From positions 1 to 62,861 of IMG/VR virus record IMGVR_UViG_3300034069_000992: DNA of 62,861 bases; one strand, given 5' to 3'. The stretch is from a virus. The notes beneath the pieces are model-generated. The model was not told where the DNA came from and did not search any database. It saw only the letters and a list, made by a program, of their open reading frames with translations. Each line of letters starts with the position of its first letter. Within the stretch, counting starts at the first letter, position 1. Below, in pieces: positions 4,838 to 31,130 of this stretch. The position numbers and the translations under genes are program-made.

Positions 4838-5145
4838 CAAACGGCCTGCCAGCCAACGCGGGCAACTAAACCGTCCCACATCTTCATCGCCTGTATGTAG
4901 GCGAGCCCGACCTCTCGCGAAGCTTCGAGAATGTTGCGGTCCTGATCTGCTACCAAGTCGATCAGACGCTCGAATTTAGCCTCGTTTGTCTCCACCGGAT
5001 TAACGCGGCGATCAAGACTTAGCCTGTGCGCCTTGCCCATAACCATGTTGCGGGTGATGCCCATGATCTTGCCGATGTCGGAAGCTGTCATGCCCTTATC
5101 CCAGAGTTCGGTCAGCTTTGTGATCTTGTCGTCTGTCCAAACCAT
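4837..5145 (-). CDS. gcrA: GcrA-like cell-cycle regulator, N-terminal DNA-binding domain only
   Basis: MVWTDDKITKLTELWDKGMTASDIGKIMGITRNMVMGKAHRLSL matches the GcrA N-domain signature (WTD..LW..G.SAS.I...G.TRN.V.GK.HRL.L). This is the real gene inside the 364-aa track ORF 4837..5931. Confidence 0.8.
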   Translation of the reverse strand: MVWTDDKITKLTELWDKGMTASDIGKIMGITRNMVMGKAHRLSLDRRVNPVETNEAKFERLIDLVADQDRNILEASREVGLAYIQAMKMWDGLVARVGWQAV

Positions 5146-16130: not shown

Positions 16131-16592
16131 TTGGAAACCCGAAACGTGCCACGACTGTCCAAGTCGGCACCCCTTCTTCAGTCACGACGGCATGGCCGGA
16201 CCGTGGAGATGCCAGCAATGCCATGCCAAAGCGACGAAGAAGCCGGAGTTTCGAGGGCAGGGCATGCTACTGTAGACCCGCCACGGTGCACATGCGCCGA
16301 ATGTCGTACTCTCGATCTGCTCCCGGACCACCTTCAGGGGTGGCCGGGGGCGTTCCAGATCCCACTTTTCCACGCGCGAATCGTGGCGAAACGGAGGAAG
16401 ATCGTGGCCTTACCGCCCTTTGATGATCCGAAATTGGCCGAAGAATGTATGGCGCGCTGCGCCTACTTTGGTGAGCCGGCATGCTACAATGTCGAGCCCG
16501 GCTGCAAACCATGCTCCGATTGCCTGAAGGCATGCGGAATAACCGATATCGAGCCGTTCGACGAAGATGCGGCCATGGGGAGGCTGATATGA
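16131..16592 (+). CDS. Cys-rich hypothetical protein (start uncertain; ATG 16218 plausible)
   Basis: ORF with CTCAEC...CKPCSDCLKAC motifs. Confidence 0.45.
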   Translation: METRNVPRLSKSAPLLQSRRHGRTVEMPAMPCQSDEEAGVSRAGHATVDPPRCTCAECRTLDLLPDHLQGWPGAFQIPLFHARIVAKRRKIVALPPFDDPKLAEECMARCAYFGEPACYNVEPGCKPCSDCLKACGITDIEPFDEDAAMGRLI

Positions 16593-17604: not shown

Positions 17605-19430
17605 AAACCTACGGGAAGGTGCTGCTGGAGGTTGGGCGGAACGCAAGATGGCATATCAAGGATCTGTCACCGCACGTCGCGGTGGCGTTCAAGCGTCTGT
17701 TCCCCCGTGTCGATCAGTATGCGACCGAGTTCTTCATTAGCGACAGCGACGATGCCAGGGCCGATCTTTACTGGTTCATGAGCAGATATCCGCTCGAAAC
17801 GGTGCACCTCGCGCGGCTGAAGGCCGGCGCCAACGCCGTCAGAGATCGAATCGCGCGTCGCGGCGAGATCTTGAGCCCCGATTGGAAGCCGGATGCGACC
17901 AAGGGCATCCGCGAGGGCGAGGCGCCGTACATCTACCAGAGCCAGGCGGCCACCATAGCCGTTGGACAGGGCGGGTTGCTGCTCGCCGACGACGTGGGCC
18001 TGGGCAAGACGGAAGGCGCGCTCACGGCGCTCGCCACCGGCGCCCCTATGCCCGCTGGCGTCGTGGTGCAGGCGCATCTCGCCTATCAGTGGCAGCAGCG
18101 GATCGAGAAGTTCACCACCTTTACCGCGCACGTCATCAACGGCACGACACCGTACTCCCTGCCGCCGGCCGACGTGTATATCTTCCGCTACACCAACATC
18201 GGCGGCTGGATCGACTTCCTGAAAAACGGATTACTGAAATCGGTAATTTACGACGAGATCCAGGAACTCCGGACCGGGACTGAGACGGCGAAAGGCCGGT
18301 GCTGCTCAATCGTCAGCGCGCAGTCGAAGTTCAAGATGGGGCTCACCGCCACCGCCACGTACAATTACGGCGATGAGATCCACACGGTGATGGAATTTCT
18401 CAATCCGGATCTGCTCGGCGAGCGGGAAGAGTTCCTACGCGAGTGGTGCTCTGCCGGCAGGATCGTGAAGCAGCCCGATGCGCTCGGCGAGTTCCTGAAG
18501 GAAACGGGATGGATGCTCCGACGCGACGAGAACGATCCAAACGTGCAGCAGTCGATGCCGAAGCCGAACATCATCCCGATCGAGGTCGACTGGAACGACA
18601 ACGACGTAGAGGACGAGTCGGAGTTGATCCGCAAGCTGGCGATGCGCGTCATGGGCGGCAGCTTCCACGGTTCCGGCAGTGCGTCTCGCGAACTCGATAT
18701 ACGCATGCGCCAGATGACCGGGGTCGCCAAGGCGCGATCGGTGGCGGCCTATGTAAAGATGCTGCTTCAGGACAATGAGCGCGTGATCCTCACCGGCTGG
18801 CATCGCGAGGTCTATGCGATCTGGTACAAGGCGCTGGCACCCTATCGGCCGGTCTTTTACACCGGGACTGAGGACGGCGGGCGCAAGCAGATCTCCATCA
18901 ACAACTTCACCGTTGGCCGCAGTCGCGTCTTCATCCTCTCCAACCGCTCCGGCGCCGGCATCGACGGCCTACAGCACTATTGCTGGGAGACGGTGGTGGG
19001 TGAGTTGGATTGGTCGCCGCAGATCCATAAGCAGATCATCGGCCGCACCCGCCGCCCCGGGCAAAAGCACCAGGTCAACGCGCACTTCCCTTACGTCACG
19101 CAAGGCTCCGATCCGGTGCTTATGGAGATCAACGCCATCAAGAGCGATCAGGCCCGCGGCATCCATGATCCGGGCATCGTGCAGGAGGCGCGGCTTACCG
19201 AAACCAGCCGAGTGAAGCGCCTGGCGCAGTATGTGCTCGATCAGGAAGCCCCGGAGGACACAGGATGCGCGATATGTGGCGGTCCGAGCACGGGACAGCC
19301 GCTCAACATCGTTCCGCTCGCACATGCCGACCGATATCAGGCCGGATCGGAGCGCGAGGCGCTATTCGGCCCCGAAAACATCTGGTTTCTGTGCCGATTG
19401 CACCAGGAAGAAGAGGCGCAGGCCGCTTAG
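17598..19430 (+). CDS. SNF2-family helicase
   Basis: LLADDVGLGKT (motif I), VIYDEIQELR (motif II), ILSNRSGAGIDGLQ...IIGRTRRPGQ (helicase C). Confidence 0.88.
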   Translation: MLKTYGKVLLEVGRNARWHIKDLSPHVAVAFKRLFPRVDQYATEFFISDSDDARADLYWFMSRYPLETVHLARLKAGANAVRDRIARRGEILSPDWKPDATKGIREGEAPYIYQSQAATIAVGQGGLLLADDVGLGKTEGALTALATGAPMPAGVVVQAHLAYQWQQRIEKFTTFTAHVINGTTPYSLPPADVYIFRYTNIGGWIDFLKNGLLKSVIYDEIQELRTGTETAKGRCCSIVSAQSKFKMGLTATATYNYGDEIHTVMEFLNPDLLGEREEFLREWCSAGRIVKQPDALGEFLKETGWMLRRDENDPNVQQSMPKPNIIPIEVDWNDNDVEDESELIRKLAMRVMGGSFHGSGSASRELDIRMRQMTGVAKARSVAAYVKMLLQDNERVILTGWHREVYAIWYKALAPYRPVFYTGTEDGGRKQISINNFTVGRSRVFILSNRSGAGIDGLQHYCWETVVGELDWSPQIHKQIIGRTRRPGQKHQVNAHFPYVTQGSDPVLMEINAIKSDQARGIHDPGIVQEARLTETSRVKRLAQYVLDQEAPEDTGCAICGGPSTGQPLNIVPLAHADRYQAGSEREALFGPENIWFLCRLHQEEEAQAA

Positions 19431-21160
19431 ACGGTGGCGATTGCCACCGAAACGACGTCTGTATCGCCATCGTCGAAGGTGGCGATACAGCGCACCAGCG
19501 CCTCTTGAGGCGTGCCCCCACGCACCCGAACCGACGCCAGCAGGCCATCCCACGTCGGATCTACCAGTTCCAAGCCGCCATCGGGCTGGAAAACCACCTT
19601 CACGATCGCCCGGCCTTCCGAAAAGTCAGTGAGATCGACGCCGTAGCGCCGTGACGTCTCCGGAGCACGATCAGGCCAGCGCAGTTCCATGATTGCCCCT
19701 CTCTTGGGTGTGACGATGCGCGTAGGCGTAGCAGGCGCATAGACGATGCGCGAGACAGCGGCCGGGCGGACGATGAAGTCGTCGTACGCCGGCGGCCGAG
19801 ATGCCCCGACGTCGAACAGAGCCGCCAATCCGGCGAAACTGAAGATCCCAGGCTCGCCAGCCAGCCGGCGGCTGAGCAAAAGGCCCGCGCCTACCGATGC
19901 AAGGGCGAAAGCGGCCGCTCCAGCGCCGAATCGACGGTAACGGGGGAAGGAAGCGGGCTTTCCGCTGGTCGAAAAGATGCCGGAAGAGGCTAGAAAACGG
20001 TGTCCGAAGGCCAGATTTGCGGCCGATACGACCACGAGAAACGCCCCGGTGGACGCCATAAGGGACCGCGCGCCGATCTTTGTGAGCGCAACAGGCATAC
20101 CGTTGAGGGCAAATGAGCCCTTGGAAGCCCCGATACTGCGGTTCAATCCGAGGTTTATAGCCTGCCCGACGAAGCTAAAATCGCTTTTTCCGGCTGGGAG
20201 AAGGTGCCCGGTAAGCAGATTTACGGCTTTGCCCAGGAGCGAATAGCTGCCCGGCGCTGCGGTAAGTAAGCGCGATCCTCGCAATACAACCTGGTTGCCT
20301 GTTAGCCCGTACGCGCCAGCCGAGATTGGCATGGCGTATCCGCGCAGCAGGTTGGCCCCGACACCTGATAGTTGGAACGCGCCCGTCTGCGCTGAGATCG
20401 TCGTTCCTGCCGATGCTCCAGTCGTCGGCGCGGCCGACTTATATGGGTGCGCATCCGGCAGCAGGGATTGCATACCCCACTTCCAAGCAAGATAGCCTTC
20501 AAGCTTCTGCCGATCGCTGTCCGACAGGATGTAGTTGAAGACGAGGCTTTCTTGGATGAAACCGGTGAGAAAGTACTTCTCAACCGCGCCGCGGCCGAAG
20601 GTAAAGCTGTAGGCTGTCGGTGTATTATACGACAGCGTGCCGGTTTCCATTGAACCGCCATCGATATAGCCGGTTACGGCACCGGCATTAAGACCGAAGA
20701 CGTTTACGACACCTAGCGCGTCATTATTGAAGTTGCGTGCTGACGCAACTCCGCTGCCAAGAACTTCCCAGGTCGTCGTATAATAGGCATCAATGCCCCG
20801 GGTGGAGCCATTTACCTTGCCGCCATATTCCACGTAGCGGCCGCCACTGGCTTTGCCGACCACCGCCATCATCGACGGGGCGCTTGATCCTGTTGAGAGA
20901 CCTGAAGAAGCGCCGTAACCCGCCGAAAGGATTTGGCCTCCGGCGAATTGCAACGCCGGAAGCCCGTTCAATCCCGTAGGCGAGTAGGTCGGTAAGCTGG
21001 TGGTGACGGTGCCGTTAGAAAAGGTTGTCTGCCAGCTTCCCTTGTTAGCGATCGAATTTACGTGCGAACCATCGGCGTTCATCACGATCGTCGACGCATC
21101 GGAGACGTCCACCCATACTACGGGCGGAACGGCTAGGCTGGCAGGCGTCCAGAGTGCCAT
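19427..21160 (-). CDS. Tail fibre protein: N-terminal LamG/ConA-like lectin domain, about nine 22-aa repeats, C-terminal domain
   Basis: RQKLEGYLAWKWG motif closing a LamG-like domain. Repeats GAFQLSGVGANLLRG / GAYGLTGNQVVLRGS / GSYSLLGKAVNLLTG / SDFSFVGQAINLGLN ... (DNA about 19800-20370). Confidence 0.65.
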   Translation of the reverse strand: MALWTPASLAVPPVVWVDVSDASTIVMNADGSHVNSIANKGSWQTTFSNGTVTTSLPTYSPTGLNGLPALQFAGGQILSAGYGASSGLSTGSSAPSMMAVVGKASGGRYVEYGGKVNGSTRGIDAYYTTTWEVLGSGVASARNFNNDALGVVNVFGLNAGAVTGYIDGGSMETGTLSYNTPTAYSFTFGRGAVEKYFLTGFIQESLVFNYILSDSDRQKLEGYLAWKWGMQSLLPDAHPYKSAAPTTGASAGTTISAQTGAFQLSGVGANLLRGYAMPISAGAYGLTGNQVVLRGSRLLTAAPGSYSLLGKAVNLLTGHLLPAGKSDFSFVGQAINLGLNRSIGASKGSFALNGMPVALTKIGARSLMASTGAFLVVVSAANLAFGHRFLASSGIFSTSGKPASFPRYRRFGAGAAAFALASVGAGLLLSRRLAGEPGIFSFAGLAALFDVGASRPPAYDDFIVRPAAVSRIVYAPATPTRIVTPKRGAIMELRWPDRAPETSRRYGVDLTDFSEGRAIVKVVFQPDGGLELVDPTWDGLLASVRVRGGTPQEALVRCIATFDDGDTDVVSVAIATV

Positions 21161-21399
21161 TATTCGAGGCTGGTACGGCCGCCGAGTGCCCGGGCGATCA
21201 GCCCGCGCTCCTGATCGATGTCGAAGAGGCCGGCTTCAGCGGCGCGGATCTCGTCGTCGAGCGCCTCCATCTGCGTCTGCGCATTGACTGAAACTTCGTC
21301 GCGCTGCTCGCGCAGTGGTGTCGACTGTCCGAGGATCGAATCACGCTGCTCGCCAAGTTCGGCGAAGCGCGCGCGCAATGCTTCTGGTGTCATATCCAT
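21160..21399 (-). CDS. Small coiled-coil protein (fibre-associated)
   Basis: 79-aa ORF; stop/start overlap with the fibre gene. Confidence 0.5.
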   Translation of the reverse strand: MDMTPEALRARFAELGEQRDSILGQSTPLREQRDEVSVNAQTQMEALDDEIRAAEAGLFDIDQERGLIARALGGRTSLE

Positions 21400-21411
21400 C
21401 GGTGCAGATCC

Positions 21412-21864
21412 TTACGAGAGGGTGAGGACGCCGTTGGCGTCGTCGAAGTCGGCCGTCAACGTCTCGCCCGACGCGAGAGTGAACGATGCGCCATAATCCC
21501 ACCAGCCGATCAGGCCGCCGGACGTGGCGTTGTAGAGCACCGCGTAACGTGCCGGTCCGATCGATCCGCCCGACGCGCTGATGACGGTATCGGCGAGCGT
21601 CAGCTTGTAGATCCCGTTGGTTTGGGCCGACGAACTGACTGTCGTTTGCGGGCCGCCGGCAACATAGCCATTGCCTGCTGCGATTTCGGCGATATCAGCT
21701 TTCACCGCGTTGGTGCGTACCGGCAAGGTGTTAGTCAGCATCAAGCGCAGCGTATCCGATGCAAGGTTATGCTGCTTCTCGGCGACGGCCTTCACGAAGG
21801 CGTCGAATTTATTAAATGCGGCCACGGCAACGATCTCCATCAAGGGCTCGCCCGCAATTATCAC
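21412..21864 (-). CDS. Hypothetical structural protein (start 21840 or 21864)
   Basis: 150-aa ORF, first gene of the isolated minus-strand fibre unit. Confidence 0.5.
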   Translation of the reverse strand: MIIAGEPLMEIVAVAAFNKFDAFVKAVAEKQHNLASDTLRLMLTNTLPVRTNAVKADIAEIAAGNGYVAGGPQTTVSSSAQTNGIYKLTLADTVISASGGSIGPARYAVLYNATSGGLIGWWDYGASFTLASGETLTADFDDANGVLTLS

Positions 21865-22078
21865 ATCGATTTGCCGTTGTCGTTTCGCATAATTCTCGAA
21901 AATCTCGATGTGACCAATTCAGCGGTCCACAACCGCTATGGCCGAAGGGGTCGGAAAGAAGGACCCGGACCCCGGGGGGGGTGCATATGTCCGCGCCCGC
22001 GCACCCGTACCTGTGCGCCCGCGTGCAAGGACTCGCGCGCCAATCTCCAGCCCGGCGCGAGCGCGCGCAGCGTGCTTC

Positions 22079-22097
22079 ATTCGCAATATTTGCGAAT
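22079..22097. promoter_or_regulatory. Perfect 19-bp palindrome (candidate operator) abutting a candidate -35 TTGCAA
   Basis: ATTCGCAA-TAT-TTGCGAAT at 22079-22097. TTGCAA at 22102-22107 and CATTTA 17 nt downstream; about 80 nt upstream of the first ORF of the ribozyme-containing operon. Confidence 0.45.
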
Positions 22098-22185
22098 TGT
22101 GTTGCAACCTCCGATCAACTGGCGCATTTAGACCATGCCAGCACCGGGAAGCCCGAGTCGCCACGGCAGAAACGAAGGAACTACG

Positions 22186-22434
22186 ATGACACTCGACACC
22201 ATCGACAGCACCGAACTAGCGCGCCGCTTCGCGCTCAACCCTTTTAACCTTGGCGGCATTGCCAACGCCCCACGCCTGAGCGCCCACGACTTCAGCGCCG
22301 CGTGCTTCGAGGCTCAAGGCCGCGCCGCCTATCCGCATGGCCGTAACCCTTACAACGCTGGCACCATGGCTAACACGCGTTGGGCGCGCGGTTGGCATCA
22401 GGCCGATGATGCCACGATCGCAAAGGAGGCTTGA
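22186..22434 (+). CDS. Rmf/CrpP-like small protein
   Basis: GAAGGA SD. GRAAYPHGRNPYNAGTMANTRWARGW resembles the RMF/CrpP G..G....PY.....W..GW pattern. Confidence 0.45.
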   Translation: MTLDTIDSTELARRFALNPFNLGGIANAPRLSAHDFSAACFEAQGRAAYPHGRNPYNAGTMANTRWARGWHQADDATIAKEA

Positions 22435-22437
22435 GCG

Positions 22438-22680
22438 ATGCGCCACTATTTCACCGATGCGATCGCCTACACCAAGCCGGAGCCGCATCATCGCCTTTGC
22501 CTTCAGTTTGACGCGGTGACACTTCAGCAACGCGGCAAAGACAATTTCGCTGTGCGCTACGGCAAGCAAGTTGATGCAGATGCTACATATGCGGAAGCGT
22601 GTGCACTGTTAGGCGCGGCCTTGATGCATCAAGCCGCATGTGGGGGCCTGTTAGACAATCGAGAGAAAGGCGAACGCTAA
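22438..22680 (+). CDS. Hypothetical protein
   Basis: 80-aa ORF 3 nt after the upstream stop; its TAA is followed immediately by hammerhead 1. Confidence 0.55.
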   Translation: MRHYFTDAIAYTKPEPHHRLCLQFDAVTLQQRGKDNFAVRYGKQVDADATYAEACALLGAALMHQAACGGLLDNREKGER

Positions 22681-22736
22681 GGCGAAACGGGGCGCACGCC
22701 CCGTCCGCTAGGCTGGCATCCTAGCGCTGATGAGCC
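22681..22736 (+). ncRNA. Type II hammerhead self-cleaving ribozyme (HHR-1)
   Basis: GGC-GAAA-[CGGGGC GCAC GCCCCG]-UC|-[CGCUAGG CUGGCAU CCUAGCG]-CUGAUGA-GCC. Full conserved core, GUC cleavage triplet; predicted cut between 22705 and 22706. Confidence 0.88.
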
Positions 22737-22759
22737 TGCCACGAATGAAAGAACACACG

Positions 22760-22990
22760 ATGCCCGTATCCCTCGCCAAGTCGGTTGACCTGTCCAAGCG
22801 CACCGCACCCGCACCCGTGATCGTGTGCACCGTTGACATGGGCGCACGCCCCGCCCGCATCGATCGCAAGCGCGCACCTAGCGCCAAGGCTCGCACCGTG
22901 TCGCGCCGTACCGCACGCCGCATGAAGTTGACCGCCGCCTTCCTCGCGTTCGCCTTCCCTGCGGACCTCTCCGCCTTCGCTGCCCGCTGA
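22760..22990 (+). CDS. Hypothetical basic protein
   Basis: ATG 22760, about 24 nt after HHR-1; low-complexity, coding status less certain. Confidence 0.4.
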   Translation: MPVSLAKSVDLSKRTAPAPVIVCTVDMGARPARIDRKRAPSAKARTVSRRTARRMKLTAAFLAFAFPADLSAFAAR

Positions 22991-23005
22991 TCTGGAGCCG
23001 ATACG

Positions 23006-23617
23006 ATGTCTGATTTCACCACCCTTTCCGTTCCCGCAGATGCCACGCCAGCGGACAAGGTGCGCGCCGCGTGCAATGCGCTCGGCCTTACGATCCGCGC
23101 CGAGTTCGTGCCCTTTAGCAAGTCGCGCAATGCGAAGCCCCGCGACGGGCAGGACAAGCCGTGGCGTTCGCTGAACTGGAACATCACGCTTGAGCGCAAC
23201 GGGCGCGACGTGATGACGACGGAATACAGCGCTGGCGAAGGCAATTGCCCCGCGTCCAAACTGCCAGCAACCGCGCTCCGCCGCGCGCAATATACCGATG
23301 CGACGGCGCGCCGGATGGCCGTAGACCATGAAATCGAAACCGGGCGGGAAGCGCGGTTTACCTTCGGCGGATACCTCAAGCAAAATGGTCCGCAGATACA
23401 GCCGGACGCGCCAAGCGTGATTATGTCGCTAGTGCTGGACTCGTCCGTGCTGGATGCTGGCAGCTTCGAGGATTGGGCGGCGGAATACGGTTACGATACC
23501 GATAGCCGTTCGGCGGAGCGCACCTATCAGGCGTGTTTAAAAACCGCGTTGAAGCTGCGCGCCGCGATTGGTGAAGTCGGGCTGGAATTGCTCCGCGCTG
23601 CCGGGGAGGATTTCTGA
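23006..23617 (+). CDS. Hypothetical protein
   Basis: 203-aa ORF with protein-like composition. Confidence 0.6.
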   Translation: MSDFTTLSVPADATPADKVRAACNALGLTIRAEFVPFSKSRNAKPRDGQDKPWRSLNWNITLERNGRDVMTTEYSAGEGNCPASKLPATALRRAQYTDATARRMAVDHEIETGREARFTFGGYLKQNGPQIQPDAPSVIMSLVLDSSVLDAGSFEDWAAEYGYDTDSRSAERTYQACLKTALKLRAAIGEVGLELLRAAGEDF

Positions 23618-23817
23618 TGGCTAAGAAATCCGGCTTCAATCTGTCGTTCGACGTTCGCAATGCGGCTTTTGACGACGGCAACCGGCCATACGAAGCCGCG
23701 CGCATCCTTCGCGAAATCGCCGATAAATTAGAGGCTCAAGCCTATGTGGGTGGCGGCCACGTCCGCGATGTGAACGGCAACACGATAGGCCATTGGGAGA
23801 TGACACCAACCGCATAG
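23617..23817 (+). CDS. Hypothetical protein
   Basis: 66-aa ORF, TGATG coupling; its TAG overlaps the first base of HHR-2. Confidence 0.55.
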   Translation: MAKKSGFNLSFDVRNAAFDDGNRPYEAARILREIADKLEAQAYVGGGHVRDVNGNTIGHWEMTPTA

Positions 23818-23879
23818 GCGAAACGCTCCGCCACCGTGCGGGGCGTCCAACCGGATCGGGAACCGGTTGCTGATGAGCC
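23817..23879 (+). ncRNA. Type II hammerhead self-cleaving ribozyme (HHR-2)
   Basis: GGC-GAAA-[CGCUCCGC CACCGU GCGGGGCG]-UC|-[CAACCGG AUCGGGAA CCGGUUG]-CUGAUGA-GCC; predicted cut between 23847 and 23848. Confidence 0.88.
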
Positions 23880-23903
23880 AGCCCTAGAAACGAAGGATTG
23901 CAC

Positions 23904-24227
23904 ATGCGCTATTTTGTCACCGTCACGCGCGACACCACGGAAAGCACGGTTATCACCGTTGACGCCGCAAACATGACAGCCGCGCGCGACGTCGCGATTG
24001 AGAAGGCCCGGAACGAAGCTGGCGCCTATAATTGGGTTCCGGACGATTGCACCGGTGGCGATCCGTATTTGGCTGATCCCGATGAGAAATTGCAGACAGC
24101 GGACGACGACGCGGACGACGACGCTTGCGGGCAATGCGATGGCACCGGCACCACCGACGCAATGGGGCGCGTAGAGCAATGCCCGGTCTGCGACGGTACC
24201 GGCACCCTCCAGACCGGCGAAATCTGA
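23904..24227 (+). CDS. Small protein with DnaJ-type CxxCxGxG zinc-finger pair
   Basis: CGQCDGTGT...CPVCDGTGT; ATG 23904 preceded by the GAAACGAAGGA leader. Confidence 0.6.
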   Translation: MRYFVTVTRDTTESTVITVDAANMTAARDVAIEKARNEAGAYNWVPDDCTGGDPYLADPDEKLQTADDDADDDACGQCDGTGTTDAMGRVEQCPVCDGTGTLQTGEI

Positions 24228-24230
24228 ACC

Positions 24231-24332
24231 ATGCTCTACAACCTCGCCGCCGCCGCTCAATATGCCTTTTTCGCCTTTGCTGGAGCCGTCGCGATTTACG
24301 CGATCGTCCGCACAATCAAGGATGCCCGCTAA
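24231..24332 (+). CDS. 33-aa predicted membrane peptide
   Basis: Read by eye (below the track cutoff): MLYNLAAAAQYAFFAFAGAVAIYAIVRTIKDAR; TAATG coupling to the next ORF. Confidence 0.4.
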   Translation: MLYNLAAAAQYAFFAFAGAVAIYAIVRTIKDAR

Positions 24333-24532
24333 TGCGCCTTTACCGCCTGATTGTGACAGAGCCGGCTCTGGGCGTAGTGAAGCGCGAGCGCTTCAACGCC
24401 GCTACCGATCTCGCCGCCGAACGCATCGCCGGGGATGCTTGGAACGCACCCTATTCGATCGCTGAACCGGGCCGCTATCGCCTGAAGCTGTACCGCAGCG
24501 GGGAACGCCGCCCGTTCCACACGATAGGCTAA
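24332..24532 (+). CDS. Hypothetical protein
   Basis: MRLYRLIVTEPALGVVKRERF... (C-terminal part of track ORF 24125..24532); stop 2 nt before HHR-3. Confidence 0.5.
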   Translation: MRLYRLIVTEPALGVVKRERFNAATDLAAERIAGDAWNAPYSIAEPGRYRLKLYRSGERRPFHTIG

Positions 24533-24534
24533 TT

Positions 24535-24596
24535 GCCGAAACGCCGCGCCTTGCGCGTGGCGTCCACCGGAACCGTCCACCCGGTGCTGATGAGGC
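24535..24596 (+). ncRNA. Type II hammerhead self-cleaving ribozyme (HHR-3)
   Basis: GCC-GAAA-[CGCCGCGC CUUGC GCGUGGCG]-UC|-[CACCGG AACCGUCCAC CCGGUG]-CUGAUGA-GGC. Stem II is swapped (GCC/GGC) relative to HHR-1/2; predicted cut between 24564 and 24565. Confidence 0.88.
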
Positions 24597-24617
24597 AGGA
24601 CACGAAACGAAGGAACG

Positions 24618-25538
24618 ATGATGCTGAACCTGTTCGATCACACGCAAGGCTTGCCCTACACCGCTGAGAAGCCCCGCGCCGCCGATGCGCACGAAATCCG
24701 CGCCTATCTGGAATGGCTGGCGGCGGTGCGTGGCATCACGATCCCCGCTGATGCCCGCTTCTATACGGCAGGCATTTGGACGGGCACCGGGGAGGATGCG
24801 CGGTGCGTAATGGATATGCCCGGCTATGGCGTCACCGATACGGGCACGATGGAAACGCTAGACGAGGATGGCGAAGTGATCCGCAAGGTTCCGCTCGCCA
24901 CCGACAAAAAGGGCAAGCTAGTGCTTACCGCTGCACAGATTGCCACCGCCTGCGCATTGCCCAAGGTTCGCAAAGCCCGAAAGGCCGCTGCAAAGCCCGT
25001 AGAGCGCGCCGAACCGGTTTCGACTACGTCCGCACCATCCGACGACGTTGTGGCGCTGCTGGCGCGCGTGGCGGCGCTGGAATCGGCAATGCGCACCGTT
25101 GGGCTTGCTGTCACCACCGCGAAGCCGGTTGCAGCTAACGACGATGCCGCGCCGCCGCGCCGCACTGAGCGCGAGCGCGCCGCCATCCTGCGGGCGTGGC
25201 GTATGCGGCGCGAGATGCGCGAGCGGGCGGACCTAGACCGGCGCGCGCTTGAGGCGGCGAACGTCTGGGCGCGCGCTGAAGTGGCGCGAGTTGGCGAAGC
25301 ACTGGAACAAGCCGCCAATGCCCGCACCGCCGCCACCGCCTACAAATCGGAGATGGAAGCCGCATGCATCCGCGCCGATCGCACTGAAGCCGATTTGCGT
25401 GGGGCGCGTGCTGAAGCGGCGGCGCTGGTGCGCAAGCTGGAGCAATCCCGCTCTGCCACCGTCACGCGGCGCGCGCTGCCTATTCCCATGCCTGTCGCCA
25501 CCGCGCTCCCCCGCGTGCTTGTGGGAGCGACACGATGA
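24618..25538 (+). CDS. Hypothetical protein with C-terminal coiled coil
   Basis: 306-aa ORF, GAAACGAAGGAA leader. Confidence 0.6.
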   Translation: MMLNLFDHTQGLPYTAEKPRAADAHEIRAYLEWLAAVRGITIPADARFYTAGIWTGTGEDARCVMDMPGYGVTDTGTMETLDEDGEVIRKVPLATDKKGKLVLTAAQIATACALPKVRKARKAAAKPVERAEPVSTTSAPSDDVVALLARVAALESAMRTVGLAVTTAKPVAANDDAAPPRRTERERAAILRAWRMRREMRERADLDRRALEAANVWARAEVARVGEALEQAANARTAATAYKSEMEAACIRADRTEADLRGARAEAAALVRKLEQSRSATVTRRALPIPMPVATALPRVLVGATR

Positions 25539-25918
25539 TCCGCCGCCCCAAGGGTCTCGACCATGACTCGCACATGGTTCTCAACGTCTATGAATGTGAT
25601 TGCGGCAATAGCTGGGAAGATACCTGGGATTGCGGTTGCGATGACGAGTGCGGGGAATGTGGCGCGGATGTCTCCCCATCTTCTAGCGAGGATGATCCAG
25701 ATTGCGACTGCGCGGATTGCCGTAACAAGCTTGTGCATCATTCTTCGCGGGCATGGTCGCGCGATGCTGACGGCTGGTGGTGCCGCCCGTTCTATCGCAA
25801 GGATGCGATAACGCTGGCGTTCTGCAATGACAGTCACGTCTTCAAGATGGATGGCCGGCTTTACTGCCGCAACGCGAAACAGAAACGCGTTCTTGATAAC
25901 GGGCGCCCCGTACGATGA
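25535..25918 (+). CDS. Cys-rich hypothetical protein
   Basis: 127 aa, CDCG...CGCDDECGECG...CDCADC; ATGA coupling. Confidence 0.55.
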   Translation: MIRRPKGLDHDSHMVLNVYECDCGNSWEDTWDCGCDDECGECGADVSPSSSEDDPDCDCADCRNKLVHHSSRAWSRDADGWWCRPFYRKDAITLAFCNDSHVFKMDGRLYCRNAKQKRVLDNGRPVR

Positions 25919-26085
25919 GCGCGGAACGCATCGACGCCGCCGCCCGCCGCCTGATCCGCGCCGCGAAAGAGATGCTTGACGCATACGGCGGAGACACTCC
26001 CGATTGGCTCCAGTCTGAGGCGATGCGGCTGGATGCCGCCGTCGATGAGATGGACGAAGCACTCAACACGAAGGAAGCACGATGA
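25915..26085 (+). CDS. 56-aa hypothetical protein
   Basis: Read by eye: MSAERIDAAARRLIRAAKEMLDAYGG...; ATGA overlaps at both ends. Confidence 0.45.
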   Translation: MSAERIDAAARRLIRAAKEMLDAYGGDTPDWLQSEAMRLDAAVDEMDEALNTKEAR

Positions 26086-26615
26086 ACCCGAACGATATTG
26101 ATCTGACCAACGCACAGCTTGCCGCCACCGCTACCAGTGAAGGCGACGGGCGCGAACGGTTCACCGTGCTGAACGTGTGGTACGTGCCCGACCATTCCCG
26201 CCCGTGGGTTGCTGAAGCGCTGGGCGTGTCCACGCTGCCCGGTGAGGTGACAAAGACGCGGCGGCTGGCGTCGGCATCGCTTGAGCGGGCAATGCGCTTG
26301 CTCGACGATAGCGATCTGGGCGTGATCGTGAAGGAAGGCGCGCGCGAGTGGGCACAGGAGCATGGGGCTCCGGTCCTGCCGCGCGGTGGGCTGTCCGCCG
26401 CGTGCGATCGCGAGGCACTGGCATTGCTCTTCGGCGTTGGGATCGAGGCGGTGTCTATCAGCGCCGCCGCCGTGGCGTTCAACATGGGCGAGTCCACCTT
26501 GCGCATGTCGATGAAGGATGGGCGCGATATCCGCGTGCCGCTCCGCCGCCTGCTGCCCTATCTCGACCGCGCCGCCTTCCGCCGCGACTTCGGTGCGGAG
26601 GTGTCCCGTGGATGA
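26082..26615 (+). CDS. Hypothetical protein
   Basis: 177-aa ORF. Confidence 0.55.
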   Translation: MNPNDIDLTNAQLAATATSEGDGRERFTVLNVWYVPDHSRPWVAEALGVSTLPGEVTKTRRLASASLERAMRLLDDSDLGVIVKEGAREWAQEHGAPVLPRGGLSAACDREALALLFGVGIEAVSISAAAVAFNMGESTLRMSMKDGRDIRVPLRRLLPYLDRAAFRRDFGAEVSRG

Positions 26616-26835
26616 GATGGTTTTTGAGATCGAAACCGGTGGCGGTGTAGTCATCTCGATCGAGCACCCATTCGGCGGGGCTGTAACCACTTACAAAGCG
26701 AGTGCGCCAGCCGCCCCGGAATACGTGGTTGCCCGCCGCAAGATGCTCATCGCCGCCGCTAAAGTTCTCGATGCCGCCACCGCCGTAGAACTGAACTGGT
26801 TGCTCGACGTGAAATTGGAGAACGCCCGTGCTTAA
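26608..26835 (+). CDS. Hypothetical protein (GTG 26608 or ATG 26617)
   Basis: C-terminal part of track ORF 26518..26835; start chosen by coupling to the upstream stop. Confidence 0.45.
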   Translation: MDEMVFEIETGGGVVISIEHPFGGAVTTYKASAPAAPEYVVARRKMLIAAAKVLDAATAVELNWLLDVKLENARA

Positions 26836-27784
26836 CTGGAGCCGCCTTGTGGGCCTGATCGCGCCCGACAACCGCAGCGCTGTGGAAGCCGCGCCGCCGC
26901 CGCAACCCATCCGCGTTATCCCAGGCGGACCCAACGCACCCGAACTGTGCATGCTGAGCGTGGAGTGGGATGGTCTCGACGCCGCCGTGCTCGCTGAACA
27001 GGAGTCCGGCGTTCCCGACGTGTGGCTGGCACAGGTCAAAATGGATGGCATCAACGCGATCTACATCGATGGCTGCATCGTCGGCGGCCGTGAGGGGGCA
27101 CCGCTCGATTGCGCTCTGCAATGCCAGCCCGGCTTGGCTCGGCTGGAGAAGGCGCTGGGCGAGCCTTACGTCTTCTTTGGCGAGTATGTCGCCAAGGATG
27201 GCTTCAACGCCACGCTGTCCGAGAACCGCAAGCGCGTCGGTGATGGCGTGTTCTGGATCTATGACGCCGTGCCCTTCCGTGAGTGGGCCACCGGGCGGGA
27301 TTACGCCACCGCGATCGAACTGCGCCTGACGCTGCTGCGCGATGCGTTCCAGCAAGCCGACACCGGCGCGTTCGTCGGCTTCCTCAACTTCTGGATGCTC
27401 AACGCCGCCGAGATGCGCGCCAAGGCGCACGAGGTGTGGGCCGCCGGTTATGAGGGGCTGGTGAAGAAGCGCGTGGGCTCGCCGTTTGTGCGCCGCCGCT
27501 CGCAGGACTGGCACAAGGTCAAGCAGCGCTTCAGCGCGCCGTGCGCAGTGATCGACACCATCCACAAGAACGGCAAGCTGCACCGTGTGATCGTGCGCGG
27601 GCCGGAGCCATCCGGTTCCAAGCCGATCACGCTCGCCGGCGGCTGGAGCGATGCTGAAGCCGAGTCGATCGACATCGGCATGGCTGAAGGCTCGCAAGGC
27701 CGCATCGTGAAGGTTGAGTTTGAACTGACTGTTTCCACCCCGCGCACCGTGCGTGCGCCTAAGTTCAAAGGATTGCTGGCATGA
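26828..27784 (+). CDS. ATP-dependent DNA ligase (minimal, nucleotidyltransferase + OB)
   Basis: Motif I VKMDG, motif III FFGEYV, motif IV WIYDAV, motif V EGLVKK. Confidence 0.8.
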   Translation: MLNWSRLVGLIAPDNRSAVEAAPPPQPIRVIPGGPNAPELCMLSVEWDGLDAAVLAEQESGVPDVWLAQVKMDGINAIYIDGCIVGGREGAPLDCALQCQPGLARLEKALGEPYVFFGEYVAKDGFNATLSENRKRVGDGVFWIYDAVPFREWATGRDYATAIELRLTLLRDAFQQADTGAFVGFLNFWMLNAAEMRAKAHEVWAAGYEGLVKKRVGSPFVRRRSQDWHKVKQRFSAPCAVIDTIHKNGKLHRVIVRGPEPSGSKPITLAGGWSDAEAESIDIGMAEGSQGRIVKVEFELTVSTPRTVRAPKFKGLLA

Positions 27785-27939
27785 GCAAGGTTTCTGGTCT
27801 CGCCGCCGACGGCGCTGCATGGTGGTCGCTCTTCATGATCGTGCTGTTCTGCTCGCTCCCGCTGATCGCGCACCCGCTCATCAACGCGCTGGCGTGGCTG
27901 CTCGATGGTCTCGACAGCTTCGGCGCGGGGTGGTGGTGA
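27781..27939 (+). CDS. 52-aa predicted membrane protein
   Basis: Read by eye: MSKVSGLAADGAAWWSLFMIVLFCSLPLIAHPLINALAWLLDG...; ATGA coupling. Confidence 0.45.
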   Translation: MSKVSGLAADGAAWWSLFMIVLFCSLPLIAHPLINALAWLLDGLDSFGAGWW

Positions 27940-28154
27940 TGAGCCTCGCAACCGATCCCCGCTTTTGGCCGTCCGTCCGCCGAATCCTGCGCTACCGACA
28001 GGATCTGCGCGACGCGCGGCGTGACGGCTTCGTGGAGGTGCGAGCGTTCGCGCCCCTGCCATGGCTGTCTCCGAGTAGCGGCAACCGCATCATCGCTACC
28101 CGCGTGAACCGCGATGGCACCGCGCTCTTCGTCAAAGTTGAAAGGATAGTTTGA
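27939..28154 (+). CDS. Hypothetical protein
   Basis: MSLATDPRFWPSVRRILRYRQDL...; TGATG coupling. Confidence 0.5.
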   Translation: MSLATDPRFWPSVRRILRYRQDLRDARRDGFVEVRAFAPLPWLSPSSGNRIIATRVNRDGTALFVKVERIV

Positions 28155-28441
28155 TGACGATGCCCATTCACATCGTCCGCGATATCGGCAACAAATGCAG
28201 TGACGACGTCGCTGCTGCCATCTCCCGCAACATGCATCTGGTGGACACACCGAAGGACGCCAGCAGCGTAGCATTTTTCGGGGCTGCATCAGCATTGGGC
28301 GCGGCATCCGGGGCGTTCCTGGCGACACAGCCGATGAACGGGGGTGGCATGCCCGCCGATGTGCTGGCGGCGGCGCTGTGGAGCATCCTTCAGCCGATGG
28401 TTGTGGGCAGCATCGAGCGCATACAGGAGAGGAAAGCGTAA
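28151..28441 (+). CDS. Hypothetical protein
   Basis: 96-aa ORF. Confidence 0.5.
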   Translation: MMTMPIHIVRDIGNKCSDDVAAAISRNMHLVDTPKDASSVAFFGAASALGAASGAFLATQPMNGGGMPADVLAAALWSILQPMVVGSIERIQERKA

Positions 28442-28788
28442 TGGATCACATCCCAAGCAATAAATCAGCCAGCTTCGTTGATACGAGCGCCGACGATTAT
28501 ATGCCGCGCGCGCACTTCGCGCCGCATACGACGCACGACGAAGGCGGCTTTCACATCGTGCACCCTGCGGGCTCTCTGAAGATCGGGACGTTGCACGATC
28601 GCGATAACGATCGCCCGGTGCCGATCATCCGCGTGGATCACGTCGGCGGCCCCACCTCGCTTCTGTTCGTCCCCAACGCGCAGGAGATGCGCCTGTTCGC
28701 CACCGCCATGACACAGATGGCCGACGAGATGGAAGCCGAAGCCGCCGATCTGCTCGCTGGTGCACTCAAGCGGAAGCCGGGCGCATGA
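28441..28788 (+). CDS. Hypothetical protein
   Basis: MDHIPSNKSASFVD...; TAATG coupling. Confidence 0.5.
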   Translation: MDHIPSNKSASFVDTSADDYMPRAHFAPHTTHDEGGFHIVHPAGSLKIGTLHDRDNDRPVPIIRVDHVGGPTSLLFVPNAQEMRLFATAMTQMADEMEAEAADLLAGALKRKPGA

Positions 28789-28961
28789 AGTGGGAGCAGG
28801 CCACCTTCCTAGCGTTCGGTGTGGCGGTGCTGGTGGCGGGCATAGCCGGCATGATCGGCTGCTTCGTCTACCACCGCAGCGCATCTCTGTTCGGCTGCGC
28901 CTGTATGGTGATGGCCGGGGTAATCTTCATCGACGGGGCTCTGGGAGGTCCGGGTGCATGA
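28785..28961 (+). CDS. 58-aa predicted two-TM membrane protein
   Basis: Read by eye: MKWEQATFLAFGVAVLVAGIAGMIGCFVYH...CMVMAGVIFIDGAL. Confidence 0.45.
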   Translation: MKWEQATFLAFGVAVLVAGIAGMIGCFVYHRSASLFGCACMVMAGVIFIDGALGGPGA

Positions 28962-29227
28962 GCGATCATAAAGAGATCATCGGCATTGACGAGCATCGTT
29001 ACGTCGACACCTATCTGCGCAGCTATCCGGTCAAGGTTATGCAGCCGCGCGCGATGGTGATGCTCAACGTCGACAGCGGGGGACCGCCCGCGCCACCGCT
29101 TGAGCCTAATCGCATTGTGCGCACCGAACGCATCCTGCGCCTGCTCACGCTGCTGCAATCGAGCGATCCGCGGCAGCGGAAACGCGGGACTCGGTTGGCG
29201 ACCGATGCGCTGAAGAGGAAAAAGTAA
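28958..29227 (+). CDS. Hypothetical protein
   Basis: MSDHKEIIGIDEHRYVDTYL...; ATGA coupling. Confidence 0.5.
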   Translation: MSDHKEIIGIDEHRYVDTYLRSYPVKVMQPRAMVMLNVDSGGPPAPPLEPNRIVRTERILRLLTLLQSSDPRQRKRGTRLATDALKRKK

Positions 29228-29520
29228 TGGAAGATTTCCAACGCGAATTTCTCGCCGCGATCGCAGCCAGCTTGGCCGATCACGGCGAGGTAGTGATCGG
29301 ACTCGATCCCGCCTCCGGCCTTGACCAAGCGGCGATCATCGACTTGCATCGCACCATTATAGAGGGGGCGGGGCCGGAATACGTGCTGGTGCGTCACGAC
29401 GTGCTCGATAGGATAGACGAACTCCACGCAATGCACCTTGCACCGCCACCGTCGCGATATCGCGACTATCTTAAACACGATCCTACGAAGTCACACCGCC
29501 GCCGGCGGAACCGGCGCTAA
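29227..29520 (+). CDS. Hypothetical protein
   Basis: 97-aa ORF, TAATG coupling. Confidence 0.5.
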   Translation: MEDFQREFLAAIAASLADHGEVVIGLDPASGLDQAAIIDLHRTIIEGAGPEYVLVRHDVLDRIDELHAMHLAPPPSRYRDYLKHDPTKSHRRRRNRR

Positions 29521-29536
29521 TCGAAAGGCCACCGAT

Positions 29537-29821
29537 ATGAACCAGACAATCCCACCCACCCTTGGCGCCGGCGACACGATCGCGCTCGAATTCATGGATG
29601 TTCCCGTCAACATCGGGAAAGCGCGATCGCGCGCTGCTTGCGTGGCTATCACCGCCAGCCCCAACTCGCCGATCGGCCCTAAGGTTGTGCTGTCGGTCAA
29701 TGCGGCCGCGCCGGGGGAGGATCGGGCGCGCGCGCACGTGGCGCATCTGAGCGCGGAGGAAGCGATATGGCTCGCAGGCCGCTTGCTGTCCGCCGTTGCC
29801 GACCTGAGTGATCCACTATGA
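29537..29821 (+). CDS. Hypothetical protein
   Basis: MNQTIPPTLGAGDTIALEF...; AAAGG upstream. Confidence 0.5.
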   Translation: MNQTIPPTLGAGDTIALEFMDVPVNIGKARSRAACVAITASPNSPIGPKVVLSVNAAAPGEDRARAHVAHLSAEEAIWLAGRLLSAVADLSDPL

Positions 29822-30075
29822 GGGGCGACGATCGCGTTTCGCGCATGGCCGCCGTGCTGGTGATGGCCGCCGGCGGGAAGATCAGCATCGATCTGGATCT
29901 GATCGCCAACGCGCGCTTCATCCGCCTGCACCAGACGGACGATCCGCGCACCAACAAGGTGCACTACACCGCAACCTACGATCGCGAAGGGCAAGGCCCG
30001 ATCGTCGATAACGACGACGTGGTGATCGAGCACATGAAGATCCTGCCGAGCAACAAGGGGAGCCACACCCGATGA
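29818..30075 (+). CDS. Hypothetical protein
   Basis: 85-aa ORF, ATGA coupling. Confidence 0.5.
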   Translation: MRGDDRVSRMAAVLVMAAGGKISIDLDLIANARFIRLHQTDDPRTNKVHYTATYDREGQGPIVDNDDVVIEHMKILPSNKGSHTR

Positions 30076-30272
30076 CGCGCCACCGCACACAATTCGTCCG
30101 CGAGGGCTCCGGCTACAACTTCAACGGGCCGAAGGCGCGCGCGCTGAAGGGCAAGCTGTCTCTCGTTACCGCGCAGAACGCGAAGCGGGTGCCGTGCTCG
30201 ATCTGCGGCATCGGCATCCTGCCTGGCGCCATGCAGGCGCACACCGAAACCGTGCATGGAGATGACCAGTGA
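30072..30272 (+). CDS. Hypothetical protein
   Basis: 66-aa ORF, ATGA coupling. Confidence 0.5.
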   Translation: MTRHRTQFVREGSGYNFNGPKARALKGKLSLVTAQNAKRVPCSICGIGILPGAMQAHTETVHGDDQ

Positions 30273-30661
30273 GCGACAAGCGGCCGATTGACACGTCAAC
30301 CCTTGGTCCGATCAGGCTGGGGCAGCCGAACGCGATGGACAAAGCCCGAGAACTCTACGCCAGAGCGCTGGAAGATGCAGGTTGCGGCGGGTCGGCGTTT
30401 ATCCGCAAAGGGCACGGCAACATCTGGGTTGATCCTGCCTTAGCTGTGATCGCCACCCTGCTCAAGCAGGCGGAGGCCGCACCGGGAGTGGTGGAGGCGG
30501 TCAAGGCCGAGATCGAGCGACAGTGCAGCATCGGCGCGGGAACGTGTCAGCGTGATTCGGAAACAGGGCTGATCGAAGTTCACGCGGACATAGACGCCAA
30601 CGGGTTTGCAGCCGCTATGACCGAAGCCCTCGCCCGCCAGCATGGGGCGCAGGAACAGTGA
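30269..30661 (+). CDS. Hypothetical protein
   Basis: 130-aa ORF. Confidence 0.55.
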   Translation: MSDKRPIDTSTLGPIRLGQPNAMDKARELYARALEDAGCGGSAFIRKGHGNIWVDPALAVIATLLKQAEAAPGVVEAVKAEIERQCSIGAGTCQRDSETGLIEVHADIDANGFAAAMTEALARQHGAQEQ

Positions 30662-30912
30662 AGCGCATATTCTACGGGCTGGTGTGCGTGCAGGTATCTG
30701 CCCCCGGCAAGATTGACCAGCATAACGAGTGCTGGTTTGACGTTGCGTCCTCAAAGGATGAAGCGCTCGGCAGGTGGTCGAAACTGGCGCTGGCAAAGCA
30801 CTCAGGCGGTGTGATCGCTTGGATGGACGCCTACGACATTACGGACGCGGCGCGATCCGCTATTTCTATGATCGCCGCCGCCCCGGCAACCGATGCGGGG
30901 GAGGGGAACTGA
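30658..30912 (+). CDS. Hypothetical protein
   Basis: 84-aa ORF. Confidence 0.5.
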   Translation: MKRIFYGLVCVQVSAPGKIDQHNECWFDVASSKDEALGRWSKLALAKHSGGVIAWMDAYDITDAARSAISMIAAAPATDAGEGN

Positions 30913-30913
30913 C

Positions 30914-31024
30914 ATGCAATATCCCACAAAGCGCCTGGATGTTTGGAAGGTAGTGCTCATCGTCTCGATAAACGCCGCTCTATGCTCCTGCATCGTGATC
31001 GGCGCCTTGCGTGTTTTCACATAA
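30914..31024 (+). CDS. 36-aa predicted membrane peptide
   Basis: Read by eye: MQYPTKRLDVWKVVLIVSINAALCSCIVIGALRVFT; starts 1 nt after the upstream TGA. Confidence 0.35.
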   Translation: MQYPTKRLDVWKVVLIVSINAALCSCIVIGALRVFT

Positions 31025-31080: not shown

Positions 31081-31130
31081 ACACGCAAAGGGAAGGCCCG
31101 GTGGATCACTCCGCCGGGCCTTCTTCGTTT
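31081..31130. terminator. Bidirectional intrinsic terminator between the convergent plus block and the minus-strand late operon
   Basis: GAAGGCCCGG (31092-31101) / CCGGGCCTTC (31114-31123). Followed by TTCTTCGTTT on the plus strand and CCTTTGCGTGT on the minus strand. Confidence 0.75.

Follow-up and report, generated by a model that had tools for sequence, protein, structure and literature searches.

The window analysed here is a stretch of 62,861 nucleotides (nt), positions 1 to 62,861 of the viral record IMGVR_UViG_3300034069_000992, and the subject of this report is an operon on its plus strand (22186-31024) whose genes are separated at three points by type II hammerhead ribozymes, termed HHR-1, HHR-2 and HHR-3. 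A preliminary description of the locus had called the operon tightly coupled and had placed a same-strand hammerhead in each of its only three sizeable gaps, and both statements hold. By a start-codon survey the operon contains 27 open reading frames (ORFs), g1 (ORF 1) onwards, with 26 junctions, 23 of which are overlaps of 1-8 nt or gaps of no more than 16 nt. The other three, with gaps of 79, 86 and 85 nt, are the hammerhead sites and the only long gaps of the operon. The ribozymes are spaced 1142 and 717 nt apart and flank two blocks of three genes among the 27 co-directional ORFs, which is the arrangement expected of clustered phage hammerheads (at least two close copies on the coding strand, flanking genes or short blocks). 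The segments A to D that they delimit are set out below together with the ribozymes, the purine-rich leaders that precede the first gene of each segment, and orthologues in two related phages, L007 and L009.

22169-22179, plus strand: ribosome-binding site and purine-rich leader of the shared type, GAAACGAAGGA; the ATG of ORF 1 follows after 6 nt; no ribozyme
22186-22680, plus strand: coding part of segment A, g1 (22186-22434) and g2 (22438-22680), from the ORF survey and profile matches
22680-22744, plus strand: HHR-1, type II hammerhead, from Rfam, stems and pseudoknot; orthologues L007 10438-10504 and L009 6062-6133
22743-22753, plus strand: degenerate leader GAATGAAAGAA, 6 nt before the g3 ATG; L007 has GAAACGAAGGA here and L009 has GAACGAAGGA
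22760-23817, plus strand: coding part of segment B, g3 (22760-22990), g4 (23006-23617) and g5 (23617-23817)
23816-23887, plus strand: HHR-2, type II hammerhead, from Rfam; orthologue L007 11922-11986
23887-23897, plus strand: shared leader GAAACGAAGGA, 6 nt before the g6 ATG
23904-24532, plus strand: coding part of segment C, g6 (23904-24227), g7 (24231-24332, 33 amino acids) and g8 (24332-24532)
24534-24604, plus strand: HHR-3, type II hammerhead, from Rfam, full core and pseudoknot; orthologues L007 13570-13632 and L009 7623-7694
24604-24614, plus strand: shared leader GAAACGAAGGA; the ATG ATG of g9 follows after 3-6 nt
24618-31024, plus strand: segment D, g9 (24618-25538) and 18 more tightly coupled ORFs

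Identification and anatomy of the ribozymes

Both strands of the 62.8-kb window were compared with 4227 Rfam families using cmscan at the gathering thresholds, and a permissive E-value mode was run in addition. Exactly three matches reached their gathering score, all to Hammerhead_II (RF02276) and all on the plus strand: HHR-1 with 42.7 bits (E = 2.1e-05), HHR-2 with 49.0 bits (E = 4.8e-07) and HHR-3 with 37.3 bits (E = 5.6e-04), the last barely clearing the gathering score of 37. Over the whole window the permissive mode added only a small nucleolar RNA match of 28 bits against a gathering score of 48, which is taken as chance, and this leaves the hammerheads as the only credible RNA-family matches.

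A hammerhead core was defined as C3-U4-G5-A6-N7-G8-A9, G12-A13-A14, an A15.1-U16.1 pair and H17 (not G) at the cleavage site. The corresponding CUGAUGA, GAAA, A-U pair and GUC/C are found in all three copies of the window and in all five copies of the relatives. Folding gives each copy a stem I of 6-7 base pairs (bp) and a stem III of 7-9 bp, both capped by loops, and an open stem II of 3-5 bp. Loop I pairs with the 3' tail in a pseudoknot, a feature absent from the preliminary description, formed by UGGCA/UGCCA (5 bp) in HHR-1, GGG/CCC (3 bp) in HHR-2 and GUCC/GGAC (4 bp) in HHR-3; its letters vary among orthologues with the pairing kept, and the observed total was matched by 7 of 2000 tail shuffles. 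In most members of RF02276 the pseudoknot between loop I and nucleotides 3' of stem II comprises at least 4 bp (PMC3088659).

C17, after which the cut is predicted from sequence reading and folding, is at 22705 in HHR-1, 23847 in HHR-2 and 24564 in HHR-3, giving predicted fragments of 1142 nt (22706-23847) and 717 nt (23848-24564); these sites and lengths had been correctly assigned before. Self-cleavage yielding 2',3'-cyclic phosphate and 5'-OH ends is predicted for all three copies, and the end structures described earlier, a stem III hairpin on the upstream product and a 5'-OH with stem I on the downstream one, would follow from the type II topology. Each ribozyme sits close behind a gene: stem II of HHR-1 directly adjoins the g2 stop codon TAA (22678-22680), that of HHR-2 overlaps the g5 stop codon TAG (23815-23817), and the g8 stop codon TAA (24530-24532) is 4 nt upstream of stem II of HHR-3. 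A direct copy (18 of 19 nt) of the HHR-1 stem III hairpin and cleavage site (22690-22708) was also seen inside g3 at 22840-22858, 150 nt downstream of HHR-1 and lacking a surrounding hammerhead core.

Selection on the RNA fold

Covariation was counted over the eight copies of the three phages, with the helix assignment anchored on the core. Stem cells pair in 98.3% of cases, compared with 32-45% when the partners are slid by 1-3 columns. Nine of the 15 stem pairs have changed on both sides, covering 24 cells, and none of 500 shuffles reached the observed covariation score; within orthologue groups there are 22 pairwise compensatory changes. The unpaired nucleotides of the catalytic core are invariant in all eight copies. 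Because fold and core are kept at a divergence where unselected intergenic DNA would be unalignable, both are maintained by selection. The preliminary description had said as much of the fold, but its companion statement that the stems are completely different in sequence was too strong: the core-proximal pairs II.1, II.3, III.1-2 and I.1 are identical across copies, and HHR-2 and HHR-3 agree at 75% of positions over 60 nt in their 3' halves.

Leaders and gene blocks

The 11-mer leader GAAACGAAGGA occurs at exactly three sites in the window (22169, 23887 and 24604), all on the plus strand, which are those before ORF 1, after HHR-2 and after HHR-3. Together with the degenerate form after HHR-1, this is the distribution that had been reported. 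When one mismatch is allowed there are six matches in the window against a mean of 0.86 in shuffles. Of the four segment starts, three thus have the identical leader, and related leaders stand at all 11 segment starts of the three phages. A hidden fourth or decayed ribozyme before ORF 1 was considered and rejected: neither permissive Rfam nor a clade-specific covariance model finds a core there, in agreement with the earlier statement that this leader has no ribozyme, and the upstream region scores 17 bits in the clade-specific model through the leader alone.

A one-mismatch form of the leader, GAAACGGAGGA, is found elsewhere in the window at 16388-16398 (plus strand), before a GTG start at 16404; the gap in front of it is about 125 nt long and contains a hairpin. 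In L007 this variant stands ahead of an ATG at 17601. Across this phage lineage the leader may mark the first cistrons of transcription units, and the variant at 16388 probably precedes another such cistron.

Pfam and PHROGs provide almost no functions for the operon ORFs that were scanned, and no anti-restriction gene such as ardA was recognised among them. g2, g4 and g5 match phrog_6500, phrog_4273 and phrog_9027, respectively, and g3 is a small basic protein. g1 (22186-22434), which is 64% identical to its L009 counterpart (5804-6063), matches ribosome modulation factor (RMF) below threshold, with 21 bits against a cutoff of 27.9. The C-terminus of g6 has two CXXCXGXG zinc-ribbon motifs; the matches of this protein to the DnaJ central domain and anti-TRAP are sub-threshold, and its PHROG match is annotated as anti-termination protein Q-like.

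Related phages and gene exchange

Relatives were found by a motif scan and by protein-guided scans of viral contigs. The two related contigs recovered are IMGVR_UViG_3300028586_000003, which includes loci L005, L007, L008 and L011, and IMGVR_UViG_3300034069_001421, which is L009. The motif scan (CTGATGAG...GAAACGAAGGA) gave four matches, three of which (L003, L004 and L006) were rejected as chance matches without a ribozyme; the fourth, L005, led to the true relative. A search of viral contigs for g9 relatives by peptide patterns found none.

A search of related genomes at syntenic junctions had been proposed as a check, and it shows ribozymes at matching junctions in both phages. L007 has three same-strand type II hammerheads, each followed by GAAACGAAGGA or GAAACGAAAGA, with GAACCGAAGGA before its first ORF. 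L009 has two, of HHR-1 and HHR-3 type, and its leader GAACGAAGGAACGA stands at two places, before the first ORF and after HHR-1. No missed HHR-2 was detected in L009 and no ribozymes were found in L001 and L002; L010 and L012, in which none was found either, have little upstream sequence and are uninformative.

The proteins common to the window phage and these relatives are only 35-60% identical. A g3 homologue comes after HHR-1 and a g9 homologue after HHR-3 in each of the three phages; of the genes that lie between these two ribozymes, all but g3 lack detectable similarity among the phages. For HHR-2 the DNA homology between the window and L007 is confined to 97 nt (23811-23907), beginning some 5 nt ahead of the stop codon of the upstream gene and reaching as far as the start codon of the next, and the flanking genes are unrelated. 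Since genes are swapped while the modules stay, the ribozyme-plus-leader modules behave like fixed expression slots for exchangeable accessory genes.

Known systems and a wider survey

Triple type II hammerheads flanking genes have been described in prophages of Agrobacterium tumefaciens, Azorhizobium caulinodans and Clostridium scindens by Perreault et al. in 2011, and these cleave completely in vitro and in E. coli (PMC3088659). The likeness to the present locus is close. In both, same-strand hammerheads flank genes or short blocks in a phage gene array, the topology is type II with a pseudoknot from loop I to the 3' tail, the flanked genes vary between genomes, and processing of a long phage RNA into gene- or operon-length mRNAs has been proposed; two of the prophage hosts are alphaproteobacteria, as is probably that of the window phage. 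The differences are that the window phage is new and uncultured, that the flanked genes are others with no ardA seen, and that one 11-nt leader follows the ribozymes (degenerate at HHR-1) and also precedes the promoter-proximal gene, a Shine-Dalgarno sequence or ribosome-binding site being unmentioned in PMC3088659. The 2011 study had also put forward circular or spliced RNAs, neither of which it found, and a review of 2019 again puts forward a role in processing, stability and translation, describing the purpose as undefined (PMC6765202). The novelty implied by the preliminary description therefore falls away, the arrangement, the processing hypothesis and the circular/spliced speculation all having been published in 2011 (PMC3088659), and the locus is a typical example of a common arrangement and not a new phenomenon. 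Its remark that the role of clustered phage hammerheads is unresolved agrees with the 2019 review (PMC6765202).

Three further systems are useful for comparison. Three type II hammerheads are active in Desulfovibrio cells according to cyPhyRNA-seq (PMC8782182); those of Desulfovibrio vulgaris are of the same class, in a phage-like gene neighbourhood with two close same-strand copies, and differ from the window in host and genes and in that no operon-wide partition or shared leader is described (PMC8782182). RiboJ, like the window modules, places a hammerhead just upstream of a ribosome-binding site; with it transcripts become about twofold more abundant and protein rises two- to tenfold (PMC6206723). 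It removes variable upstream RNA, leaves a 5'-OH and a hairpin and makes expression context-independent, an effect predicted for the window modules as well; RiboJ, however, was engineered from a plant satellite RNA hammerhead of another topology with an added hairpin, and the likeness is best regarded as functional analogy, not common descent. Viroids, satellite RNAs and retrozymes are cut by hammerheads into units whose 5'-OH and 2',3'-cyclic phosphate ends, joinable by tRNA-ligase-type enzymes, are also those predicted in the window. Viroid and retrozyme units are small, mostly non-coding, replicating or retrotransposing, and bounded by repeats of one ribozyme, whereas those of the window are protein-coding parts of a DNA-phage operon, 0.7-1.1 kb long, with differing flanking ribozymes.

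To place the locus among viral hammerheads in general, IMG/VR viral contigs were scanned with a strict type II pattern. Type II hammerheads are abundant in them, with at least 120 loci (L013-L132) and at least 164 unique sites. An ORF of at least 40 codons ends within 12 nt upstream at 78% of these sites, compared with 11% of random positions, and a ribosome-binding site with the start of an ORF of at least 40 codons lies within 70 nt downstream at 87%, compared with 27%. Among the matches listed, the median distance to the downstream start is 25 nt, and at least 37 loci have 2-5 copies, always on one strand. The survey suggests that phage type II hammerheads as a rule stand in the order stop codon, ribozyme, ribosome-binding site and start codon. 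That all ribozymes of a phage are followed by a shared leader was rejected as a general trait, being weakly supported: among the matches listed, near-identical leaders occur in 6% of within-locus pairs, and the 18 nt before the start have a mean identity of 0.40 within loci against 0.33 between loci. Because within-locus likeness is barely above that between loci in this wider sample, the near-identical leader at all segment starts, the ribozyme-free first gene included, is specific to the lineage of the window phage.

Proposed processing of the operon transcript and alternative explanations

The mechanism that we propose begins with each motif of about 70 nt, which would fold during transcription with stem II open, stems I and III capped and loop I paired with the 3' tail. 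The RNA would cut itself after C17 in each motif, and one polycistronic RNA would become four mRNAs, carrying g1-g2, g3-g5, g6-g8 and g9 onwards. Each upstream product would retain its stop codon and end 25-32 nt later in the stem III hairpin, which is G+C-rich (-13 to -16 kcal/mol), with a 2',3'-cyclic phosphate. Each downstream product would start with a 5'-OH, its first nucleotide already paired in stem I, and would have the common purine-rich ribosome-binding leader about 40 nt further on, as the promoter-proximal gene does. Structured ends, 5'-OH groups and cyclic phosphates affect attack by exonucleases and 5'-end-dependent RNases, and the ends formed here would alter susceptibility to both; each segment would be an autonomous message whose ends should resist exonucleases and the entry of 5'-end-dependent RNases. 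Decay and translation of each block would be uncoupled from its neighbours, and the first cistron of each would gain a standard start region independent of upstream RNA. Within blocks translation would rely on the 1-8-nt overlaps, and the ribozyme gaps would break this coupling and supply a fresh start site.

Processing into four RNAs, which the preliminary description had also proposed, is inferred because of hammerhead chemistry and the published experiments on equivalent triple arrangements, and we consider it the best reading. That the three elements are active type II hammerheads within one early or middle phage transcript, and that they process it in this way, seems to us reasonably probable when both parts are taken together. 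Several points weigh on the other side. The HHR-3 score sits right at the Rfam threshold, the HHR-2 pseudoknot of just 3 bp is at the weak end of the range, promoter scans returned no convincing sigma-70 promoter, and in vivo cleavage, together with any change that it brings in RNA stability or yield, is a prediction for an uncultured contig. Unmasking of the start site by cleavage was tried as an explanation and rejected, the accessibility of leader and AUG being similar in cleaved and uncleaved RNA (mean unpaired probability of leader and start codon 0.58-0.64 and 0.48-0.69, respectively, by partition-function folding). Finally, where the host has RNase J, an RNA may be destabilised by its 5'-OH end, the glmS ribozyme being an example (from a reference given in PMC6765202), and the direction of any stability effect is therefore uncertain.

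The ribozymes might instead be switches whose cleavage is conditional. Folding would be blocked by a ribosome terminating at the upstream stop codon, since its footprint would extend over stem II, the GAAA core and half of stem III, and cleavage would then be a readout of whether the upstream block is translated, and to what extent. Mg2+ or a different signal could also govern it, so that the proportion of joined and separated messages is adjusted in the course of infection. Regulated cleavage of phage hammerheads was raised by Perreault et al. (PMC3088659), and the stop codon does lie 0-6 nt from stem II in all eight copies, in keeping with the 78% against 11% of controls in the survey, but this closeness is explained by tight packing alone. 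The conserved module, moreover, is a minimal ribozyme plus leader (97 nt) with no extra ligand-binding domain and with neighbouring genes that vary, which sets it apart from ligand-controlled elements of the glmS type; there is no evidence for a competing alternative fold, and the published triple arrangements were cleaved completely during transcription (PMC3088659). Conditional cleavage is accordingly judged unlikely. A role at the level of DNA, in which the modules would be homology linkers for cassette exchange by recombination and RNA cleavage incidental, would account for gene content that differs between HHR-1 and HHR-3 among the three phages while the modules stay, and for an HHR-2 module kept between unrelated genes with homology stopping at the stop and start codons. 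Compensatory stem changes around an invariant unpaired core nevertheless point to selection on RNA fold and catalysis and not on DNA identity, the stems, which are the bulk of the module, are too diverged for homologous recombination, and the left boundary of the variable region falls after g3 and not at HHR-1. Such selection argues against a purely DNA-level role, which we hold to be highly unlikely, and rules out relics. Inactive relics or selfish passengers without a phage role could be entertained in so far as the motif is simple and chance consensus matches are possible in large databases (Perreault et al., PMC3088659); with three one-strand copies occupying the only three gaps, perfect cores in all eight copies across deep divergence and strong covariation, this explanation has next to no probability.

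The segments, the middle or the flanking ones, could, lastly, be rejoined after cleavage as circular or exon-skipped RNAs, by host RtcB or by a hammerhead put together from halves of two neighbouring ribozymes. RtcB takes 5'-OH and 2',3'-cyclic phosphate ends as its substrates. The HHR-1 strand after CUGAUGA (GCCU) pairs over 4 bp with the HHR-2 strand before GAAA (AGGC), and the ends of segment B could rebuild a complete hammerhead, with its 3' part from HHR-1 and its 5' part from HHR-2 supplying the strands, as they could in L007. In the halves of HHR-2 and HHR-3 that bound segment C, by contrast, pair II.2 is mismatched both in the window and in L007, and the same is true of the HHR-1- and HHR-3-like halves in L009. 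The segments, 0.7-1.1 kb long, are ordinary in that they code for proteins, and they have no flanking repeats beyond the ribozyme modules that might bring their ends together. ATP-dependent DNA ligases need 5'-phosphate and 3'-OH ends, not hammerhead ends, and the only ligase of the operon, g14, is of the DNA ligase type. Circular or spliced products of such clusters were sought by Perreault et al. and none was found (PMC3088659). The circular RNAs suggested in the preliminary description find no support here, unlike the processing that it proposed: re-ligation is most improbable, and that the middle segments, g3-g5 (22706-23847) above all, are rejoined as translatable circular mRNAs, or a block skipped by joining its flanks, is scarcely credible. 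If it were true, a DNA phage would for the first time be seen to make a circular or ribozyme-spliced mRNA.

Processing into separate messages thus retained, the locus adds a clean comparative case to a question on clustered phage hammerheads that dates from 2011, and no answer to it. Three ribozyme modules keep fixed junctions despite 35-60% protein identity and replacement of the intervening genes, and each gives the next gene the same start region as the first gene of the primary transcript. This leads to the testable idea that the ribozymes are natural insulators, making each exchangeable gene block an independent message, and fixed ribozyme-plus-leader slots with exchangeable genes are a useful, testable refinement. 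Were the locus merely an ordinary example, its practical value would be in annotation, and an uncultured contig makes the open question no easier to test than do the existing cultured examples.

Putative boundaries of the transcription unit

Three features outside the coding region bear on the extent of the transcript.

22080-22096, no strand assigned: operator-like perfect palindrome TTCGCAATATTTGCGAA upstream of the operon, a putative promoter or operator element
22136-22168, plus strand: possible 5'-leader hairpin of the primary transcript, directly before the shared leader (RNAalifold)
31093-31122, no strand assigned: hairpin of 13 bp (-25.8 kcal/mol) with T-rich tails on both strands, a candidate bidirectional terminator

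Similar palindromes lie 80-100 nt before the first ATG in both relatives (L009 5707-5722 and L007 at about 9380-9398). The hairpin at 22136-22168 has 12 pairs, five of them changed on both sides among the three phages by RNAalifold, a weak signal from three sequences only. The hairpin at 31093-31122 lies between the end of the operon at 31024 and convergent minus-strand genes, and is probably a bidirectional terminator closing the operon; a simple terminator scan did not flag it, and the scan showed no terminator-like site on the plus strand within the operon. With no such internal site, and with the palindrome and hairpin bracketing the genes, it is plausible that the operon forms a single transcription unit from 22080-22096 to 31093-31122.

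Ahead of the operon, over 21873-22096 of the window, L007 9129-9239 and L009 5545-5722, the three phages share non-coding DNA of about 75-80% identity, compared with 35-60% for their proteins. Besides the palindrome TTCGCAATATTTGCGAA it contains a run of the form GGACCC...CCGGGGGGGG and a hairpin, AGCGGTCC-N3-ACCGCT, that is invariant. Because there is no covariation in this hairpin, it may be a protein-binding or DNA-level site.

Phage genome and host

The window covers all or most of a phage genome, with capsid protein E, a lambda-family portal, gpA terminase, DnaB, DnaG, RecT, SNF2 and a fibre-tail adaptor domain as evidence. The late genes on the minus strand include capsid protein E, the lambda-type portal and the gpA terminase, the replication and recombination genes are those for DnaB, a GcrA-like protein, RecT, DnaG primase and SNF2 helicase, and the hammerhead operon comes after the SNF2 gene. 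The phage is unlike any cultured one: megablast against 50,697 phage records gave no match to the window DNA, the closest capsid match is 35% identical, and no exact record was found for g4.

26828-27784, plus strand: ATP-dependent DNA ligase, g14, from a four-sequence profile match and nucleotidyl-transferase motifs

The motifs of g14 are KxDG, FFGEY, EGLVxK and WxKxK, and its four-sequence profile matches solved ATP-dependent DNA ligases (E = 6e-10), Pfam giving no match. It belongs to a divergent minimal DNA ligase family present in these phages and in a Sphingomonadaceae metagenome-assembled genome (MAG). A 364-amino-acid protein encoded at 4837-5931 (minus strand) has a GcrA cell-cycle-regulator domain (E = 1e-12), which is typical of alphaproteobacterial phages and hints at the host. 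Because of this domain and the ligase homologue on a contig of the Sphingomonadaceae MAG, the gene content suggests an alphaproteobacterial host.

Between the SNF2 helicase gene and the hammerhead operon lies a three-gene cassette (19427-21864, minus strand), which includes a 577-amino-acid protein with podophage fibre-tail adaptor (Gp77) and concanavalin-like domains. The cassette is missing at the same position in L007 and looks inserted.

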